61,698 nt of DNA from Patellaria atrata CBS 101060 (lineage: Eukaryota): positions 486,615 through 548,312 of the forward strand of contig MU006105.1 of NCBI GenBank assembly GCA_010093705.1, written 5' to 3'. The translations under genes and the position numbers were made by a program. Of the stretch, positions 1,036 to 61,636 are shown one piece after another (the stretch's first letter is position 1; each line of letters opens with the position of its first letter). The notes beneath the pieces are model-generated. The model saw nothing but the letters and a program-made list of their open reading frames with translations. It was not told the DNA's origin and ran no database searches.

Positions 1036-3375
1036 TGACATCGTGGCTGCTCAAGACCTGATATTTGTCAGACGTAAGGGTGCTGAAAATGATCAAGATA
1101 ATCGCTCGATTGTTTAATGACTGTTCTAAAGAGCGTTTAAATACATGAGAACATGCAGGTAACAGCGTTTATACCTACTAGGCAACTGAGAACATGCAGG
1201 CAACAGCGTTGATACCTACTAGGCAGCTATGTTAAAGGAATGATGCTAATAACTAGCGTAGGGCAGTAGGAGATATACTTGGTTATCCTTTCCACCAAGA
1301 TCTTCAGTCTAACAAAGGGGACCCATACTTCAACAATATTAGTAGCCAAAGAACATGGCATTGAATTTGATATTGCAAAAACGGAACTCATTCACTTTCA
1401 TAACAAGAGAACGCCAATCCAGGACTCAATCTGCCTCTTCAACCAGGTGGTCCAACCAAAGTTAATGGTTAGATGGCTCGGGATGTGTCTAGACTCAAAA
1501 CTCACTTTCAAACAACATGTAGAGAAAAAGATCAAGAATGCAGAAAATGCAATGTACATGATTTAAAGACTAAGAAACACACAGAAAGGTCTATCAATGC
1601 AAGCAGTGCGTCAACTGTATAATGCATGCGTCAACTCAATAGCAGACTATGGAGTACCAGTATGGTGGAATCCGAATCACAGGAATAACTAGCAAGTTGA
1701 AAGGTATCAAAAATTGCAGAACAAAGCATTGAGAATGATCTTAGGTGCCTTCAAAACTTCTCCAAGCATAGCCATGGAAATTGAAGCAGGTCTGCCTCCT
1801 CCAGCTGTCAGATTCGAGAAGTGGTGCAATTCTTATACACTCAGGACTCTAAAGTTCCACAAAAATTACCTAGTTAAGAGAGTGCTCTGGGAAGAGGTTG
1901 AAAAAGATGACTTAGCTGCAACCTTAGACTCTGACTCAGAAGCAGACAATACCCCAATCAAGTATATCACAAGACCAAACACTCAGCTCCTATTCTTATT
2001 GAAGAGAATCCAGGAGTTTATCACCAACTGGAACATAGAAAAGATTTCTATACATAATGCGCAACCTTGGAGGCCAAAATTAAAGGCATTATTTATCATC
2101 TCCAGCAAGGATAAGGATAAAGCATCAAAGGAACATGATAAAATAATCAGAGACCTAGAATCAGGCATGAAGAATGGGCCAGTCAGTGTTTACTACACTG
2201 ATGGGTCTAAAGAAAGCAACAGAAATGCTGCAGGAGCATGTCAGATAGGCAATAATCAGCGCATTTTGTTTGCCGGCAACTGGAACTTAGGGGATAGCGT
2301 TGAGATTATGGACGCAGAGCTATTCGCCATCCTCAAGGCACTTGAAAGAGAAAAGACCCAACGTGAGAAGGGACAATCCATTGCCGAAAACCTATGGGTC
2401 TTTGTGGACAGCCAGGCAGCACTTAAGAGAGTACAAAAGAATAGCCTTGATGGAGGACAAGAATTAAGTGTGATGATAACAGACCTATGCAATACTCTTA
2501 CCGATGAATGGGAAATGAAAATTACCTTCAGCCGGGTTCCCGGCCGTAAGAATATCTTTGGAAATGACATAGCAGACAAGCTGGCAAAAAAAGGGACTGG
2601 ACCGTAAGCCCATAGGCGCTTCGTTCACATCACTCAGTCATATTAAACGAAAATACAAGGAAAAGATCTTATCTAATTGGAAACAAAGCTGGGAAGCCAA
2701 TAGTAAGAAACAAGGCAAACATTATACACCAATTTGCAGAGATCTTGTGCGTTTCTCACTCGGTATACCCAAATCCAATGTTCAGAAAAAGATCCAAGCA
2801 GCATACTTTCAACTTAAGACCGGTATTGGATACTTCAAGACTTACTCTAAGGTGATTGGGAAAGATGAAGAAGCGAAGTGCTTCAGAAACTGTCAATCAC
2901 TCCAAATACCAATACACCTTATTCTACATTGTACACACTACTCTAAAGAGCGCAATGAAATGAGGATGCAAATAAGATCAAAGGTAACAATGGCAAAGCT
3001 TTTTTGCACAAAGTTAGGCAAACAGGTGTTATTCAAGTATATAGCAAGAACTCGAATCTCTACTGCCAGATGGTTAATACACGCAGGAGATGTAGATAGA
3101 GTAGAACTGTAGAATCTACAGAAGATAACAAGATGTATGGCATAGAACTAGAATTAGAAATGAGATGGTAAAGAGGAAGAAAGACGGCTTTCCAACAATT
3201 TCCTTTGTATGGAGTTTAAACGTAATGACTTTCCTTTATATATAAATTATCAGTGGATTAAATTACTGAAGACTTCACTAAGCATATAAGGGCCCTGAAA
3301 AGGGATTTATGTATATAGGGAGTTGCGCCATAGCTTGAAGGCTGCATGCGCAGTATTGTAGATAATACAATACAA
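1036..3375 (+). mobile_element. 5'-truncated, inactivated non-LTR retrotransposon (Tad/I-group LINE; RT C-terminus, RNase H, zinc knuckle)
   Basis: RT motifs KTELIHF, VRWLGMCLDSKLTFKQH and QNKALRMILGAFKTSP. RNase H motifs YTDGS, DAEL.AI..AL, DSQAAL and GNDIADKLAK. C-terminal Cys/His motif CFRNC...HLILHC. Premature TAA at 1564-1566, a frameshift near 2600, and a short ATACA repeat tail at ~3364-3375. The 5' limit is approximate. Confidence 0.9.
1066..1335 (+). mobile_element. Solo LTR (family A, copy 2), inserted into LINE reverse transcriptase
   Basis: TGTCAGACG...CTTCAACA with 5-bp TSD ATATT (1061-1065, 1336-1340). Removing it rejoins the LINE frame ...AAQDLI|LVAKEHGIEFD. Confidence 0.85.
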
Positions 3376-53883: not shown

Positions 53884-55618
53884 GCGGGGAGGAAGGGTGG
53901 CGGGATTTTGATGTTGGATTCACTGGTGACGTATGATAATTGATCAACAGCGATATCGAACAACATTTCATATCATCCTGGTACCATATCTCCTATCCTC
54001 CGCATTCACGAAATCACCCTCCTCTCCTAACCACCCGCCCCCCATATCCCACACTCCGACACCTCATCCCCATGTCCTCTCCCCTTCCCCCCAAGCTCAA
54101 ATGACGCCCCTACAGTCTTCCAACGTACCACATCCCCAAACGGATATCCCCGACTTCAACCATCACACATCGACCTGTACGCAAAAAATCAGCCCTGCTC
54201 CATTTCATCATACAATCCACATACCATCGCGTCAACCACTTCATCAACCCACGCCTCTATCTCCCTCCTCTTCCTACTTCCCATTAAATCCCCGAAGCGT
54301 CTGACTCCCTGCACTGTACGGTCTTGTATAGGTAGCGTTGGGGGATGCGAGGTCAGCGGTCCGTATGCTGTGGGTGCTAGTATGGGAGGTTAGGGGGCCG
54401 GTTGGGGGGCGTGTGGGGGTTGTGGTGTCGTTGGCCTGGGGAGAGGGGGGGGAGGAGAGCGGGTGGTGGCAGAGGAGGACGGCACGGAGGGAGTAGTAGA
54501 GGGAGAGGAGGAGAGCTTTTGGGGTGAGCCAGGGTGTTCACTTTAGGTGGTGGTGGCTATTGTGGTACTTTGGGGTCAATGGGACAGACTTGGGGTAGTC
54601 TTTTGAGGTTGAGTTTGTTTTGGGATATGGTGTGTTCTCCATTCTACTGCTCTAGACTATAATCTACTTTTATTTTACTTCATTTTATCCTACCGCACTG
54701 TTCACTGTCGGTATGTTTGAATCCGCTTCCTATGATATGGAGAAAGTAACCATCCAACCATCCGACTTCTTCTTCTCTTTCTTCTGTTCGAGACCCGGTT
54801 TTATTTTCTGTGAATACTTTTGTAAACCATGATACCGGTAGAGCGAGGTGTAAGTGCTGTGGTTCCAGTGGTTGCTGGGACAACGGGATGGGTAGTGAGG
54901 TGAGGTTGATGGATTATAGTGGATGTGCCTTGAGATGTATCACAGAGAAGAGGGATGACGATTTTTCGGCTGTTATTGTGATGCTTTTGAGAATTTTGAG
55001 CTTTTATTGTCGTGATTGAAGACAAGTGTCTCCAGCCAGATGTCGTGTAGGCCAAATTGAACAATGCCAGCGCAATGTCAGATTCTGATTGGAAACGTCT
55101 TCAGACTAATCTCATCAGTTAAAACACGCGAAGCAGTATAACGACACTTCTAGCTTTGTGGTTGTGTTTTGAACTCACTCGGTCTTCATCTATCTCTGTT
55201 CGGTCGGAAGTTGTAAACACATTTGAAAAATAAGGTGCCGTGGCTGTTATGCGCTCTCCGATGGAGATTACACCCCAGGCATGAATTGAGGAACATCTAT
55301 TTTCTGATCTGATGGATGTGGTCCGAACTTCTGGGAAGTGTTGGCCTTATTTGAGCTCCAGCGTTGCTTTGCGGGCGGCGAATACATACGTGACTTCGCA
55401 GATATCATACCTACGACTATGCTCGAGGCTCACGCGGGCGCACGCAAGATCGCTGGGCCTTAGGGACATGGTGCAAGGTATCACTTGAGATAGCAGATGC
55501 AAGTCAATTGCCAATCATAAACACTTTCGTATCCCTATCTCAGCTTTTGAGCGCATGTATTCAAAGACTATCTAAAGCAAATCTATCTAAATAGCATCAA
55601 AACAGAGTCAGCAAACAT

Positions 55619-55713
55619 CAAAGGCTATCAGATAATCAAGCCAGCAGCTGAAAACCATCCGAAGAGGTTATCAAGCTATTGCTAGAAATCATGAGTTCAT
55701 CATTTAGCCTTTG
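55619..55713 (-). ncRNA. Candidate box C/D RNA, copy 1
   Basis: Box C ATGATGA (55703-55697) and box D CTGA (55631-55628). Perfect 9-bp terminal stem CAAAGGCTA/TAGCCTTTG with the canonical 3-nt K-turn bulge. Internal hairpin capped by cUUCGg. Confidence 0.65.
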
Positions 55714-56171
55714 TAATCGCGGGTTCCAGTCATGATTTCTTTCCGCTACACCTTAATCCGAAGGTCTCACAGATGCCAGATTACCTCTGCACCGCATTGC
55801 AGTGCCCAGAGCTATTGGAAAAGAAAAAAGAGGAAGAAGTTTGGGGGAGACGAAGGGGTTTATATATCCTACGCCAAAGCTTCTGGCAGAATGCTAGATC
55901 AACCGAGACGGCCGTCAGATCACTCGAAGGCGGTAGAACCAGCTGGAGGACGACTGTGAATGTGTTTGGATCATTTATTTTGTATCGTCGGATTCGACGA
56001 TCAAGCAAAGTGGCCGGGTCTCCGACGTTCATGGAAAGACATCGCTTCAAGGGAGTTCAAAATGGTGGAAAGTTGATCATCACATTGAATATACCTATCT
56101 AATATCTACTATGTACTATCGAGTGAGAGAGCAAGAAACACCTGACAACCAAGCAGAATCTACAAACATCA

Positions 56172-56260
56172 TTGCTATCAGAACACAAGCCTAGCAGTTA
56201 AGTCACCTTCCGAAGAGTATGTCTATTGCTGAGGCAAGCGTAAGTTCATCATTTAGTCAA
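56172..56260 (-). ncRNA. Candidate box C/D RNA, copy 2
   Basis: Box C ATGATGA (56252-56246) and box D CTGA (56181-56178). Terminal stem TTGACTA/TAGCAA, extended stem II (AAC/GTT), the same cUUCGg apex and similar C-D spacing to copy 1. Confidence 0.6.
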
Positions 56261-59200
56261 GCGTAACCCGGGATACGCCATGATTTCCATCCACAGCGAC
56301 CTAAACCCGAAGGTCTCACGGGCGGGGATACACTTTCCCTTTGTAAAAAAGGAAAATAAGAAGAAGAAGTTTGGGGGGAGGGGATGAAAGGGCTTATATA
56401 TTCCATACCAAGGCTTCTGGCAGAAAACTGGATCACCCGAGGGCGGTCTAGCGGTTGCTAGATCACTCAGGGCGGTCGAAGGTGGTGTAAAGTTGTGGCC
56501 GAATCATCAAGGGGGCAGTTGCGGGACGTTTGATGTGCATTTGACTTGACTCTGTGATATTTGTTTCTTCAGGAGATCTTGCCGGCACACAGAGTACATG
56601 CGGGACGACTTTTCAGGGCTGTCATAATAGAGAAAGACATAGAAATAGCTTTATTGATCATAGAGATTCTTTCCATAAAGTAAACGGTACTGTCTTGAAG
56701 ACTAGCCTAAGAATAACTCACAATCTCCCTTTCGAACTGCCTCCTAAACGCCACTCGCCGCAACTCCGCAAGCAGATCTACTCTATTCCTTCAGGGCTGT
56801 GACCTCAATTCCACGGAACGATTATCGACGCATCTACGCAACCTATAAGAAAACACTAAGGGCTAGAGGAAGACGTTGTTGGTGCGCGAAATATATTTCT
56901 GACTATCACGAGTGATGAAATAATACCCTATAGAATGGAAATAGTACAGTACCATAGCAGAGCATACTCCCATGCTGTGAGCATAGAAGATCGGCCTTCA
57001 GATTATGCTCAGCCTCCGTGTTATTCTTCTCTCACTTATTAAAAATCGGTTCTCGGTAAGTCCCTTTTCCTCGTAGCGGCTCAACATGTTTTAAGAGTAT
57101 TCGAATTTAGGAGATGGATAGGCGGCGCTTTCTGATATCCATCGAGCGGAATTCCACAACCACACAATGTCCTATTCGGAAACCTTCCTTCAAGGCGACC
57201 ATATCCGATATCTCTTCGACTATTTTTTGCCCCTTCATCATGCATAGTGCTTGGAAGAAAGTTTGCCACCTGCCCAACTCGTATATACTAGACGGTTGAA
57301 TACTAGAACTCCCAACAAGTTTTCAGCTCCAAGGCAGCAACATATCATGTATGTTCAGGCTCAAAGAAGAATGCCACGGAAGAAGTCTCTTGAAACACAC
57401 GGGGAATGATATAGAATATAGCGGAAGGAATCGGAAAGAGATATGAAAGCACTTGGGCAGCATTGGCAGAGATCGGGCTGCAAATTCGGAGTCTTGGGAG
57501 GGCGGAGAGTGAGGCTCAAGGTCACACATCTCATCAACGTGGGATGGTTCTCAGCTAGACAGGGCTCTACATATTACCAGAAACGTATCAAAGGATCACA
57601 ACCCTCCAAGGCCGTTTGACATGCCCAGCGGGTGATTTCTGAGGTAAGCAGCTTATCTCGCGGTTAAGTGCTCTACTTTCTCCGCGTGGTTGACGAAAAG
57701 AGACGGGGGCGATAATAAGGATACCAGAATGAGGTTATGATTTATACCAGCCACAATGTGGCGGGCTTGGATGGAACGTCCGGGTGAGGTCAAGTTTGGG
57801 GGCGAAAAGATGGTTAGACCTGCCGCCCAAAGTTGGAGAACTACTGATTTCGAGAGAAATATAGAGGGCCTGAACAATGTCTGTACCGGAAACTCATTTT
57901 TTGATACAGAATCTAACAACAATCAACGGGATTACGGAGTTACATACCTGCTGGACGTAAAGTCGTGCAACATTGATAATCGATACCCAACTGCAGCCCT
58001 TTCTCAGGGCTGAGGATTCTTCGGCTCAGTAGACGTAGCCGTTGTGGTTTACACGCGTCGTTCTGGCGCAAGAAAGAAAATCTTCTACTATTGTTAGGAA
58101 ATTCGATCAAGTGATATCTGAACGAAGACTGTCGTCCAATAGACGACTATGCACCAACAACTGATCGCCCTCTCATTATTAGCAGTTTTTTATGCGTTCA
58201 ACACCTTGTCACGATAGTTCAACTCTCTCCTCTTCCCCTCCTGTCGCCTATACAGATATCCCTATTGAAACGGCCGGGTAGAGACTTCATCGGCGTGGAT
58301 CGTGAGGGCGCATATGTCGGCGTTGATGATAGGCATGCATCCTTAGTTCCCGCTGCTGTCTCGATGCCGTCCCGAATGTGTCCCTGAACGCTCTTCGGCA
58401 GCGAATGATTGTTGTCTCCAGTATGGTAGCCTCGACCAAAAAATGACTGCTGGACAAAAAAGCTTTAGAAACCACCCCTTGGTCTCTCGGCGGGCTTTGG
58501 AAGGGCGGTGCGTGAGGCGCAGAGAAGTACCATATACTACGGTCATATGAGGCCTAGCGTCTTGGAGTATGGTCCATGTTTCCCTTGAACTACTTCCCTT
58601 ATTCCCTGAGACAACGCACCCTCCATCTTCCATCTTCATGGCCGCTCGCCTCATCCATTCAGCTGCCTCAGACGGCACAAGACCAGAGCGGTACCTGATG
58701 ATCAGTCTGGTGCTAATGCGTAGTATTCAAACCATACCGTGCTTGTTAGATCCTCAACTTGAGCCCAGCGGACAACGGTACAGTATCATCGCCAATTCCA
58801 ACCATGTCTCTCCCGAATTTGTTACAGAATAGCTATTTACGATGGGGCTGAAAGTACCCTCGTGATCTCCAGTTCATCTTCTTCATTCTCTTGAAAAATC
58901 TTTAGTCGCAAATTGGGACACATTAGGACGAAAAGTGCAGGGCTTTATGGCCATGTACAGCCCCAGAGCTGTGCATTTTCGAGTCTCTCATACACCTCCC
59001 CTTCAGGTATCTTTGTAATAATCAGACCATTCTTGATTCTTCAGAGATTTTCATGGACCCCAAATTTATATTTGCCCCTAGTTGAGAAGTGGCTCGTTCG
59101 TCCGATGATGTTTTTGTATGATCGTCTAAACTTCCTACATTGTTGGCGGTGGCCGCCAGGCTGCACTTTTCAATATATGGTTTGGCCCATCTCACAGTGA

Positions 59201-59674: not shown

Positions 59675-61636
59675 ATGTGTGTTATAGAGCGGAAGACGTA
59701 TACGTACGAAGACGGCTCGACGTCTAAAATCGATAACCTTCGCCCATGTGTTAATAGCGATGGAATACGGGACTGCGGGCGTGACGTCCAATACAGAGTC
59801 ATGGAGAGGAGCGTTAGAGAAGCAATACCACCTCCAAGCTATAAAATGAGGGATGCTGGGGCGTCTCCCGTTTCACCGAACTTCCCGCCTACACCACCTG
59901 GGGTAGCGCCTTTGAAGGTTCGTCGACCTGAATCCGACCTCACGTCATCCAATAGGGAGAGGCCAAGAAGTCAAAAGAAGTATTTTACCGTCCCAGGTAT
60001 CGTTTTCAACCTTGGTGGAAGCGACTCCAAAAAGGAGAAGAGGAGGTCAAGTCACACTCGCAACCCTAGCTCTGAAAGCTCGGGCATTGTTTACGTCGAT
60101 GATCCCGGAACAAGGCGACCACAGACGGCCTCATCGGTAATCAATGTTCCAGAGGTTTCAAAACCCCAGCCTGATTACAAAACGGCGTCTTATTATATAC
60201 CTCCACCTCCACCTCCGCCTCGACCATCGAGATTAGTTACGCCATCTACTGTTTCCGCTGAGAAAGAACCCGCAGTACGTAGTAGAAGACGGCCACGCCC
60301 ACTGGTTGTCGTAACGCATGCAGGCCCAAGCGAAGAACTTCCGATTCCTGAATTCGCTAATAGGGCACCATCACCACCTCGCCAACCCACTCGTCAACCA
60401 ACCGGCTACTTTCACACTCCCTCACCTGCAAATGAAACACTAGATGATAACGACGCCTACGCCCAATTCCGCAAAAGAGACCGCGAAAGAGAGCGCCGCA
60501 AGCCACAGGAAGAAGAAGACCACAGACTAGCGCAAGTCCTCGCACGCAAGGAGAGGGAAGAAGCGGACCGTGAAATGGCGAGAGACCTTGCTCGCAAAGA
60601 AAAAGAGAAAGAGGAAGCGCGACTGGCCGAACTGGAAATAGGAAGGTTCAAAGGTCGGGCTGAAGAACGAGCCATGGCAGCGGACGTTGCACGACAGTCC
60701 GCCCGCCTCGAAAGCAGGGAACAGGCACGCGCCGCACAACGCAAGCAAGAAGAAAGAAGGAAGGCAGAAGAAGAAGACGCCGCACGGGAAGCCTCGCGCC
60801 TGCAAGCCAGAGACCGAGCACGAGAAACATCGAGACAAACCCGCGACCGCGAAGACCTCAGAATAGCAGAAGAGGAAGCAGCCGCCGCTCTTAGAGCAGA
60901 AGAAGCCAAACGCCGCCGTCGAAACGAAGACATCAAACGCCTCAAAGACGAAGAAGACCGTCTGAAGGAGGAAGAACGCAGGACGGAAATTCTCAAGCGT
61001 CAGAAAGATGACACAGCCCACCAAAAGGAACTAGCAGACACCTACGACCAAATGGCCCGCGAGCGCTCCCAGGCACATTCAGTCCACCGCCTCGACTCCC
61101 TCGAACAGGAGGCCGCGGACGCGATGGAGCGCGCGGAGAGAGAGGTTAGGTATTGGTCTGGCGAAGTGGCTGAACGGGACGCCATGAGCATAACTGCGCC
61201 GTCTCGAGCTCAGCGCTCGCCGAGGGGCACAAGGTACGCGACGAGGGTGTACACGGAGCAGATTGAGGGCCCGAGAGCAGGGGAGAGGAGGAGTATCACT
61301 GCTGCTGCTGCACCGAGGGCCCCGGTCGATTTTGTCAAGTTCCAACCGCAGGGCCCGCCGTTGCCTGAGAGGCGCAGGGAGAGCGGTATGAGTGAGTGGT
61401 CTAAGCGTGTCCTCGATGAGGCGAGGCAGGATAGTAGGGTCAACAATGTCGGTGAGATGATTGCAAGGGTCGGTGGTGGTGATGATAGTGGGGATAGGGA
61501 TGATGGGGAGGAGGCGGGTGAGGTGGTCGTGAAGCCTGAGCGGCTAAGGAGAAGAGGCACGGTTGCGGGGGATGGGACGTATTATCGTGAGAGGGAGAGG
61601 GATGGGTATAGGAGGAGGCTGCTTTTGAGGTTTTGA
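59675..61636 (+). CDS. Hypothetical protein, Pro-rich/disordered N-half and long charged coiled coil
   Basis: 653-aa open frame with ATG in a CAAAATG-like context, three Cys in the first ~35 aa, poly-Pro and an E/R/K-rich heptad region. TATA at ~59327 and a possible 5'UTR intron (GTACGT at 59391 to TAG at ~59620). Confidence 0.8.
   Translation: MCVIERKTYTYEDGSTSKIDNLRPCVNSDGIRDCGRDVQYRVMERSVREAIPPPSYKMRDAGASPVSPNFPPTPPGVAPLKVRRPESDLTSSNRERPRSQKKYFTVPGIVFNLGGSDSKKEKRRSSHTRNPSSESSGIVYVDDPGTRRPQTASSVINVPEVSKPQPDYKTASYYIPPPPPPPRPSRLVTPSTVSAEKEPAVRSRRRPRPLVVVTHAGPSEELPIPEFANRAPSPPRQPTRQPTGYFHTPSPANETLDDNDAYAQFRKRDRERERRKPQEEEDHRLAQVLARKEREEADREMARDLARKEKEKEEARLAELEIGRFKGRAEERAMAADVARQSARLESREQARAAQRKQEERRKAEEEDAAREASRLQARDRARETSRQTRDREDLRIAEEEAAAALRAEEAKRRRRNEDIKRLKDEEDRLKEEERRTEILKRQKDDTAHQKELADTYDQMARERSQAHSVHRLDSLEQEAADAMERAEREVRYWSGEVAERDAMSITAPSRAQRSPRGTRYATRVYTEQIEGPRAGERRSITAAAAPRAPVDFVKFQPQGPPLPERRRESGMSEWSKRVLDEARQDSRVNNVGEMIARVGGGDDSGDRDDGEEAGEVVVKPERLRRRGTVAGDGTYYRERERDGYRRRLLLRF

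Follow-up and report, generated by a model that had tools for sequence, protein, structure and literature searches.

Certain box C/D ribonucleoproteins (RNPs), among them U14 and snR190, contain an internal stem-loop and play a non-methylating or chaperone role. Yeast RNAs of the snR4/snR45 type are reportedly transcribed independently, which would be a likeness to the genes described here. The acetylation guides snR4, snR45 and SNORD13 have, in the accessible parts of PMC5464676 and PMC9226516, a 5′ extension before box C, a large helical interior and degenerate C′/D′ boxes; the first two recur in our RNAs, which have degenerate candidates for the third. Here we describe a tandem pair of predicted box C/D RNA genes on the minus strand of a 61,698-nucleotide (nt) stretch of Patellaria atrata CBS 101060 (the window, G000:C17:486615-548312), from a genome of 28.7 Mb in 127 contigs. 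On sequence grounds, the pair is part of a family of small non-coding RNA genes that has four or more members, and this new family is an orphan one that Rfam does not cover. In its proposed working it is closest to U14, snR190 or snR4/snR45, yet it fails the tested defining features of each. It probably does something other than ordinary ribosomal RNA (rRNA) methylation, since the segments usually used for targeting are folded into a long hairpin.

The two genes in the window, copies 1 and 2, have a spacing of 549 nt and share 68% identity across 335 aligned positions; each element that the initial annotation had listed was found at its minus-strand place. The predicted mature RNA spans 55619-55713 in copy 1 (box C, 55703-55697; box D, 55631-55628; direct sequence check) and 56172-56260 in copy 2 (box C, 56252-56246; box D, 56181-56178). 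Within the window, no other box C and box D are joined by a closing stem of 3 bp, and a joint C/UUCG/D pattern matched there twice, compared to 0 matches in 100 window shuffles. Thus the annotation was right that these are two real diverged copies, but genome searches show that they are not just a pair. Copy 3 (G000:C1:1294392-1294476) came from a loose C...GCAATA...D pattern with 13 genome matches versus 3 in the control; the 12 loci examined comprised this one family member, one U2 guide and a remainder without support. Upstream of copy 3, outside the query, the words GTGATC, CTGCCAGAAGCYTTGG and TATATAA are also present. An interior pattern, GCAATAG...CTTCGG...CTGC, matches copies 1 to 3 exactly and nothing else in the genome (control, 0). 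Copy 4 (G000:C22:198231-198313) was found via the promoter word CTGCCAGAAGCYTTGG, which at up to 2 mismatches has 35 genome matches versus 29 in the control, 3 of them exact (copies 1 to 3). Of the 30 matches fetched, four combine a TATA no more than 15 nt away with a box C farther downstream, namely, copies 1 to 3 and this new locus. Model R1, built from copies 1 to 3 with copy 4 left out, scores copy 4 at 51.7 bits (E 5.5e-11); its training members copy 1 and copy 2 score 98 and 86.6 bits. The promoter word and the RNA-structure model therefore converge independently on the same fourth locus. A broader genome pattern (46 matches versus 13 in the control) includes all four copies, and because the other 42 matches were judged by eye from partial sequence, four is a lower bound. 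Fungal C/D families, of which the snoStrip collection holds 68, usually count one member per genome, according to the accessible portion of PMC5824354.

In all four copies, box C (RUGAUGA) and box D (CUGA) are joined by a terminal stem in kink-turn (K-turn) geometry. The standard K-turn layout has three bulged nt ahead of the GA of box C; copies 1 to 3 have a bulge of this length, and copy 4 one of 4 nt. In copy 1, folding reproduces the annotated terminal stem, a perfect 9 bp, along with its bulge of 3 nt, and the predicted RNA has a fold z score of −4.31. The interior between the boxes, 64 to 74 nt, is rod-like in every copy (z scores against shuffles of −2.30, −1.80, −2.00 and −4.42 for copies 1 to 4). 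While the cores are only 56 to 68% identical pairwise, a central helix, RGC-(3 nt)-AG/CU-GCU, is kept in all four, and a conserved CUGCU(G/A)G strand lies opposite its 3-nt bulge. This bulge is AAU in copies 1 to 3 and UAC in copy 4, its length being the same throughout; the bulged strand lies at 55676-55683 in copy 1 (AGC-AAU-AG), and AGCAAUAG lies at 56230-56223 in copy 2. CUGCUGG (55641-55647 in copy 1; CUGCUAG at 56197-56191 in copy 2) is the most conserved interior word, with CUGCU invariant in all four copies; it could be a degenerate C′-like box or an antisense element.

The annotation had placed conservation on the boxes and both UUCG loops. The segments beside the boxes have indeed diverged between copies 1 and 2 (47% identity beside box C, 36% beside box D), but conservation extends to the block from promoter element to TATA (79%), the GTGAGA hairpin (83%), RGCAATAG (88%) and CTGCT (100%). 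The UUCG loops do not define the family: the apical cUUCGg (55659-55664 in copy 1, 56215-56210 in copy 2) is present in copies 1 to 3, whereas copy 4 has lost this cap and retains CUGCUGG, and the 5′ GTGAGACC-TTCG-G segment forms no UUCG tetraloop in the minimum-energy fold of either tandem copy. Two local observations concern the surroundings of box C on the minus strand. TTACGCTTG flanks box C on both sides in copy 2 (56236-56243 and 56258-56266), and in copy 1 an 11-bp pairing of AGAAATCATGA (55740-55730) with the stretch that follows box C would give an alternative fold, which the other copies have not kept.

In a model-fitted alignment of the four copies, 90.8% of cells are paired, and changes on both sides occur in 10 of the 28 pairs (2 of 500 shuffles); covariation is 0.488, compared to 0.325 ± 0.040. 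Several observations weigh against the explanation that we prefer below. The covariation count comes from four related sequences in an alignment fitted to the model, and when the four were aligned plainly with MAFFT, RNAalifold missed the rod (−1.2 kcal/mol, 0 compensatory pairs). Taken whole, copy 2 does not fold better than its shuffles (z score of −0.13); the value for copy 3 is −0.91. Finally, a metagenome scan found no homologue beyond this genome: among the matches listed, none of 119 loci exceeded 17 bits with R1, although a copy-4-like member would escape the pattern used, and 10 of 120 had CTGA downstream. With so few downstream CTGA and no R1 score above 17 bits, we take these matches to be chance. 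One could regard the four copies as non-functional relics, either decayed snoRNA (small nucleolar RNA) duplicates or a small mobile element, dispersed and known from one genome only. This seems highly improbable, given that the boxes, K-turn stem, bulge length and 16-nt promoter word survive at 52 to 54% overall identity. Moreover, four copies are known, no terminal inverted repeat appeared among the 25 longest shown, and comparison of the copies revealed no signature of repeat-induced point mutation (RIP), that is, no strong transition excess and no RIP-type dinucleotide skew.

Rfam 15 gave no match at gathering score in the window or at the copy 3 locus, so the check proposed with the initial annotation turned up no strong known-snoRNA match. 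In E-value mode there were weak generic matches only, the best being plant snoR31/Z110/Z27 (RF00353) to copy 1, at 26.4 bits (E 0.49) and thus below the gathering score of 45, mainly over the boxes and stem; no equivalent match was seen for copies 3 or 4. The annotated status as an orphan C/D family holds in this respect, as it does for the low copy number and for the absence of a shared D or D′ guide above shuffles. We did not find the family described in the literature searched, although a homologue could lie in the supplements of PMC5824354 and PMC2377427, which the search did not reach. It is also absent from the accessible parts of PMC2780460, PMC8216456, PMC4138321, PMC5640933, PMC8053127 and bioRxiv 10.1101/2021.11.25.469989, and the Neurospora sequences given in supplement 1 of PMC2780460 do not contain GCAAUAG. 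Canonical fungal guides, such as Neurospora Nc CD1-55 in the accessible part of PMC2780460 and a guide of this genome described below, share with our RNAs an AUGAUGA box C, a CUGA box D, a terminal stem, a C-to-D span of 75 to 85 nt and the common occurrence of UUCG hairpins. They differ in that our family lacks a free antisense element, folds its interior into one rod and has four paralogues.

The genes share more than the mature RNA. All four have a 16-nt upstream element (one mismatch in copy 4), TATATAA, both boxes and the terminal stem. The upstream element, CTGCCAGAAGCYTTGG, lies at 55874-55889 in copy 1 and, as an exact promoter-word match, at 56408-56423 in copy 2. Farther upstream, copies 1 to 3 have a distal motif, CCGCC-N5-GTGATC (55918-55933 in copy 1), that is found in 0 of 7 small nuclear RNA (snRNA) promoters; in copy 2, there are two such CCGCC/GTGATC motifs (56431-56475). 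The TATA box (55860-55866 in copy 1, 56400-56394 in copy 2) is followed by a pyrimidine tract, at 55817-55859 in copy 1 (90% pyrimidine, with a predicted start near 55816) and within 56345-56400 in copy 2 (88%). This core promoter geometry in copies 1, 2 and 4 (tract, 78%) resembles that of the U1, U2, U3 and U4 genes of this genome, 6 of 7 of which start 43 to 53 nt past a TATA-like box with an 83 to 98% pyrimidine tract; box and tract were not found for one U2. The 58% tract of copy 3 counts against a promoter of this type there. The snRNA promoter words TGA(C/G)T(C/A)AT (4/7) and TCGCTT (5/7) are missing from all four copies, which have their own words instead, and snRNA-type 3′ words were not found in copies 1 to 3. 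The private upstream element suggests regulation separate from that of the housekeeping snRNAs. In the snRNA genes themselves (L056, L057, L181 and L182-L184), a downstream TTTTCATT...GAAAG signal was noted by eye; together with the two promoter words, it is a candidate snRNA promoter and 3′ box of this lineage.

TATA-to-box C distances of 163, 148, 142 and 103 nt in copies 1 to 4 imply that the leader is not a conserved domain. A 7-bp leader hairpin of copy 1 (55789-55805) lies in a segment 18% identical to copy 2. The GTGAGACC hairpin (55750-55770 in copy 1, 56299-56319 in copy 2) is 83% identical and begins with a possible 5′ splice site, GTGAGA (at 55770 and 56319), and the leader word GAAATCATG is common to both (55731-55739 and 56279-56287). 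That donor, 67 nt ahead of box C in copies 1 and 2, underlies the annotated idea that copy 1 sits in an intron. On this account, at least copies 1 and 2 would be intron-encoded snoRNAs from short non-coding hosts, a question of biogenesis. Copy 1, alone in the family, does contain a complete set of GTGAGA, a branch-like GCTGAC (55612-55607) and an AG (55588-55587), and in copy 2 a box D reading CTGAT with TAG 17 nt later is laid out like the branch region in the U3 intron of this genome; moreover, 45 of 55 Neurospora C/D snoRNAs are intronic, in the accessible part of PMC2780460. However, copies 3 and 4 have no donor from their predicted start up to box C, and the branch of copy 1 is only 16 nt after box D and, as the annotation itself had said, is not kept in copy 2. 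An intronic origin appears quite improbable to us. Given the snRNA-like core promoter and the donor missing from copies 3 and 4, independent transcription by RNA polymerase II with trimming to the boxes would fit better.

We imagine, then, at least four independently transcribed genes of the snRNA type, each giving a box C/D RNA of about 90 to 100 nt once its variable 5′ leader has been removed, or a longer, capped RNA should the leader stay on. Snu13 would bind the terminal K-turn, and Nop56, Nop58 and Nop1 would protect the ends. Transcription, core-protein binding and trimming, taken jointly, are very probably as described. The promoter invites comparison with U3 (RF01846), which likewise has a TATA box and pyrimidine tract, and a GTGAG donor near the 5′ end as in copies 1 and 2. 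Our RNAs are far shorter, with no A′/A/B boxes seen and no RF01846 or RF00012 match, and the true U3 is a separate gene (L060, 130 bits). The initial annotation was thus correct in setting the pair apart from U3 and the spliceosomal snRNAs, whose genes lie elsewhere in the genome. The loci L056-L060 hold a pair of U2 genes, one of them interrupted by an intron, a U6 that also has an intron, a strongly diverged second U6-like sequence and the intron-bearing U3.

That leaves the question of guide activity, for which this genome's own rRNA and snRNAs were scanned; a methylation guide would be expected to carry a conserved antisense element of 10 to 21 nt upstream of D or D′ that obeys the +5 rule. 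As a positive control, we used a box C/D RNA at G000:C2:2002535-2002623 (L012 1501-1589, plus strand), a perfect 12-nt guide for U2 A31 (12 of 12 Watson-Crick pairs, 0/60 shuffles). It resembles Neurospora Nc CD29 and falls below the Rfam gathering score; donor-, branch- and acceptor-like words flank it. In the family, a contiguous D+5 scan gave no D or D′ register above shuffled guides (best, 10/100), and no rRNA or snRNA target was common to all copies above chance. Unpairing the 15 nt before box D costs 8.6 to 12.2 kcal/mol in the four copies compared to 0.0 for the control, and the pairing probability of the 10 nt before D, predicted for naked RNA, is 0.63 to 0.78 compared to 0.17. Segments placed to guide methylation are thus predicted to lie paired inside the rod, where they would not be accessible. 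With its two guide positions base-paired to one another, such a particle would not be a working D+5 methylation guide. The annotation had seen no obvious C′/D′ pair. CUGCU(G/A)G does retain the UG..UG of a degenerate C′ box, and YAGC is a degenerate D′ candidate, but both lack tandem G-A pairs, and since CUGCU(G/A)G sits in a helix of Watson-Crick pairs whose bulge is on the other strand, it would not form a second K-turn.

It could still be that these are ordinary, diverged 2′-O-methylation guides, with YAGC as D′ and CUGCU(G/A)G as C′, in which the rod is opened by proteins and the paralogues differ in their lineage-specific targets, possibly transfer RNA (tRNA) or mRNA. The spacing, C-(12 to 15 nt)-D′...C′-(9 to 13 nt)-D, is canonical, and fungal C′/D′ boxes are often degenerate, according to the accessible part of PMC5824354. 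One duplex in particular speaks for such guides and against our preferred view: the D side of copy 2 forms a D+5 duplex of 12 to 13 bp with 25S C2353, matched by 1 of 250 shuffles. It has 3 G-U pairs, some beside the target, is one of about 30 tests and rests on a ribosomal DNA contig that may be mixed (L009, G000:C51), whose second internal transcribed spacer and 5′ large subunit, but not first spacer, look Eurotiales-like, which weakens large-subunit target predictions. In the same energy-based scan, the best duplexes of copies 1, 3 and 4 were equalled by 25, 115 and 19 of 250 shuffles. Copy 4 can also form 10 Watson-Crick pairs between its D side and 18S C518, equalled by 24/100 shuffles. 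The D′ side of copy 2 pairs over 9 nt with both 25S A2888 and U2 A31, which by our own mapping are the apparent equivalents of the plant snoR31 sites, snoR31 being the best weak Rfam match of copy 1. But these 25S and U2 matches were equalled by 34/60 and 46/100 shuffles, and U2 A31 is already served by the perfect guide above; this dual target is at or near chance and was rejected. With guide segments self-paired and no target common to the copies, we find methylation guides of the ordinary kind doubtful. A fragmented, lower-scoring 18S copy (L004) was also noted among the rRNA sequences.

An acetylation guide would be defined by a conserved element, either 5′ or internal, that pairs to the left and right of 18S C1280 or C1773 and loops this position out. 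Copies 1 to 3 have none, and the 5′ leader of the family is not conserved. Bipartite pairing around these sites is at chance level in copies 1 to 3 (summed p 0.31 to 0.98), and in copy 3, helix 45 ranks 11 of 25 among 18S CCG sites. A candidate acetylation guide from two 7-mers of copy 3 had energies at chance; it was rejected because the 7-mers cover the segment that snR45 leaves looped out, between GS2 (18S 1760-1767) and GS1 (1781-1798) in the accessible part of PMC5464676. With U14 and snR190, the family shares a C/D RNP with an internal stem-loop and a proposed mode of action, but it has no rRNA complementarity over 13 nt and no Rfam match. At the U14 sites of 18S, the interiors of copies 1 to 3 show no match of 9 nt or more, and domain A/B pairing was not among the matches listed.

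We therefore turn to the conserved strand itself. We imagine a non-methylating antisense or chaperone RNP resembling that of U14 or snR190, in which CUGCU(G/A)G, held in a weak helix opposite the 3-nt bulge, would exchange its AGC-NNN-AG partner for an AGCAG-bearing target. This role seems plausible, if a little short of an even bet. When copies 3 and 4 are compared, only 1 of the 20 positions in the 3′ arm has changed but 8 of the 24 in the 5′ arm (Fisher p 0.027, post hoc), consistent with a constraint acting on the 3′ arm from outside. In a joint scan over 9,904 nt, the best site was U1 44-53, with which the strand pairs over 9 to 11 nt in all four copies; the copy 2 G-to-A change converts a G-U to an A-U pair there. 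This lead has its weaknesses. The U1 site is not significant (24 to 28 of 200 shuffled target sets equal it) and is missing from 1 of the 3 U1 variants read, and a 25S site near 1507 is almost its equal. Similarly, for a match to 18S helix 18, 10 to 12 of 100 shuffles did as well as copies 1 and 3, and 90 of 100 did as well as copy 2; at or near chance, that pairing was rejected as an established target. The U1 stem-loop II base, 25S at about 1500-1512 and 18S helix 18 (copies 1 and 3 only) are leads. There are five U1-like matches in the genome (L182, L183, L184 and two others), all below the Rfam cutoff; in the three variants read, the 5′ end and promoter are intact and stem-loop II varies.

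Two related ideas concern the fate of the same strand. In one, the C/D-capped hairpins are precursors of small RNAs, and an RNase III would free a 3′ arm of 20 to 25 nt with (C)UGCU(G/A)G as the seed. The imperfect rod of about 30 bp, its better conserved 3′ arm and the position of CUGCU, starting 20 nt (copies 1 and 2) or 24 nt (copies 3 and 4) before the end of box D, are consistent with it. There is also a likeness to human microRNA precursors that resemble C/D snoRNAs, with a hairpin between the C and D boxes, and that are bound by fibrillarin, although these are human and intronic (in the accessible part of PMC3089480). Yet the 4-nt offset between subfamilies misfits a single cutting ruler, the K-turn RNP would shield the helix end, and no fungal precedent turned up among the papers listed by the literature search; such precursors have little chance of being the right explanation. 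In the other, the C/D scaffold would have been turned into co-regulated, self-masked antisense RNAs, the RNP serving as a stabilizing cap and CUGCU(G/A)G being released to a non-methylation target, for example the U1 stem-loop II base (2 of 3 variants), or cut out as a small RNA. This broader view we consider unlikely, and less so than the small-RNA precursor.

Copies 1 and 2 sit in about 4 kb without long open reading frames (ORFs), downstream of an opposite-strand MOSC-domain gene. Neighboring frames encode domains of eukaryotic housekeeping type; the nearest nonidentical homologues of the glutamate 5-kinase in the window (72 to 74% identity) are from genera that we take to be Dothideomycetes. 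No ATG ORF is shared by copies 1 and 2, as the annotation had claimed; a protein-coding reading was rejected, as no such ORF is common to the copies and the overlapping frame has no Pfam match. A tRNA search found none. DNA contigs from two sequencing runs, possibly the source data, list no difference across the two copies. Elsewhere in the window, short contigs from one run carry several differing letters at 57741-57867, suggesting a small repeated or variable sequence; a charged low-complexity ORF of 653 amino acids without a Pfam match occupies 59675-61636 (plus strand), and an RNase H-like frame at 1693-2607 (plus strand), in the AT-richer start of the window, is probably a retroelement remnant.

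We infer from the sequence that the four-copy family is expressed and functional. Almost every fungal C/D snoRNA is a single-copy guide whose target is known; the earlier orphans snR4 and snR45 proved to direct a different chemistry. Homology surveys seeded from five model fungi can overlook lineage-specific families of this kind. With four members, a promoter element of their own, a structure kept by compensatory changes and no free guide, the family would provide a compact, deletable test of what roles C/D RNPs can take on. If the self-masked antisense reading were true, it would mean a new route for C/D RNAs to the spliceosome or to gene silencing in fungi.

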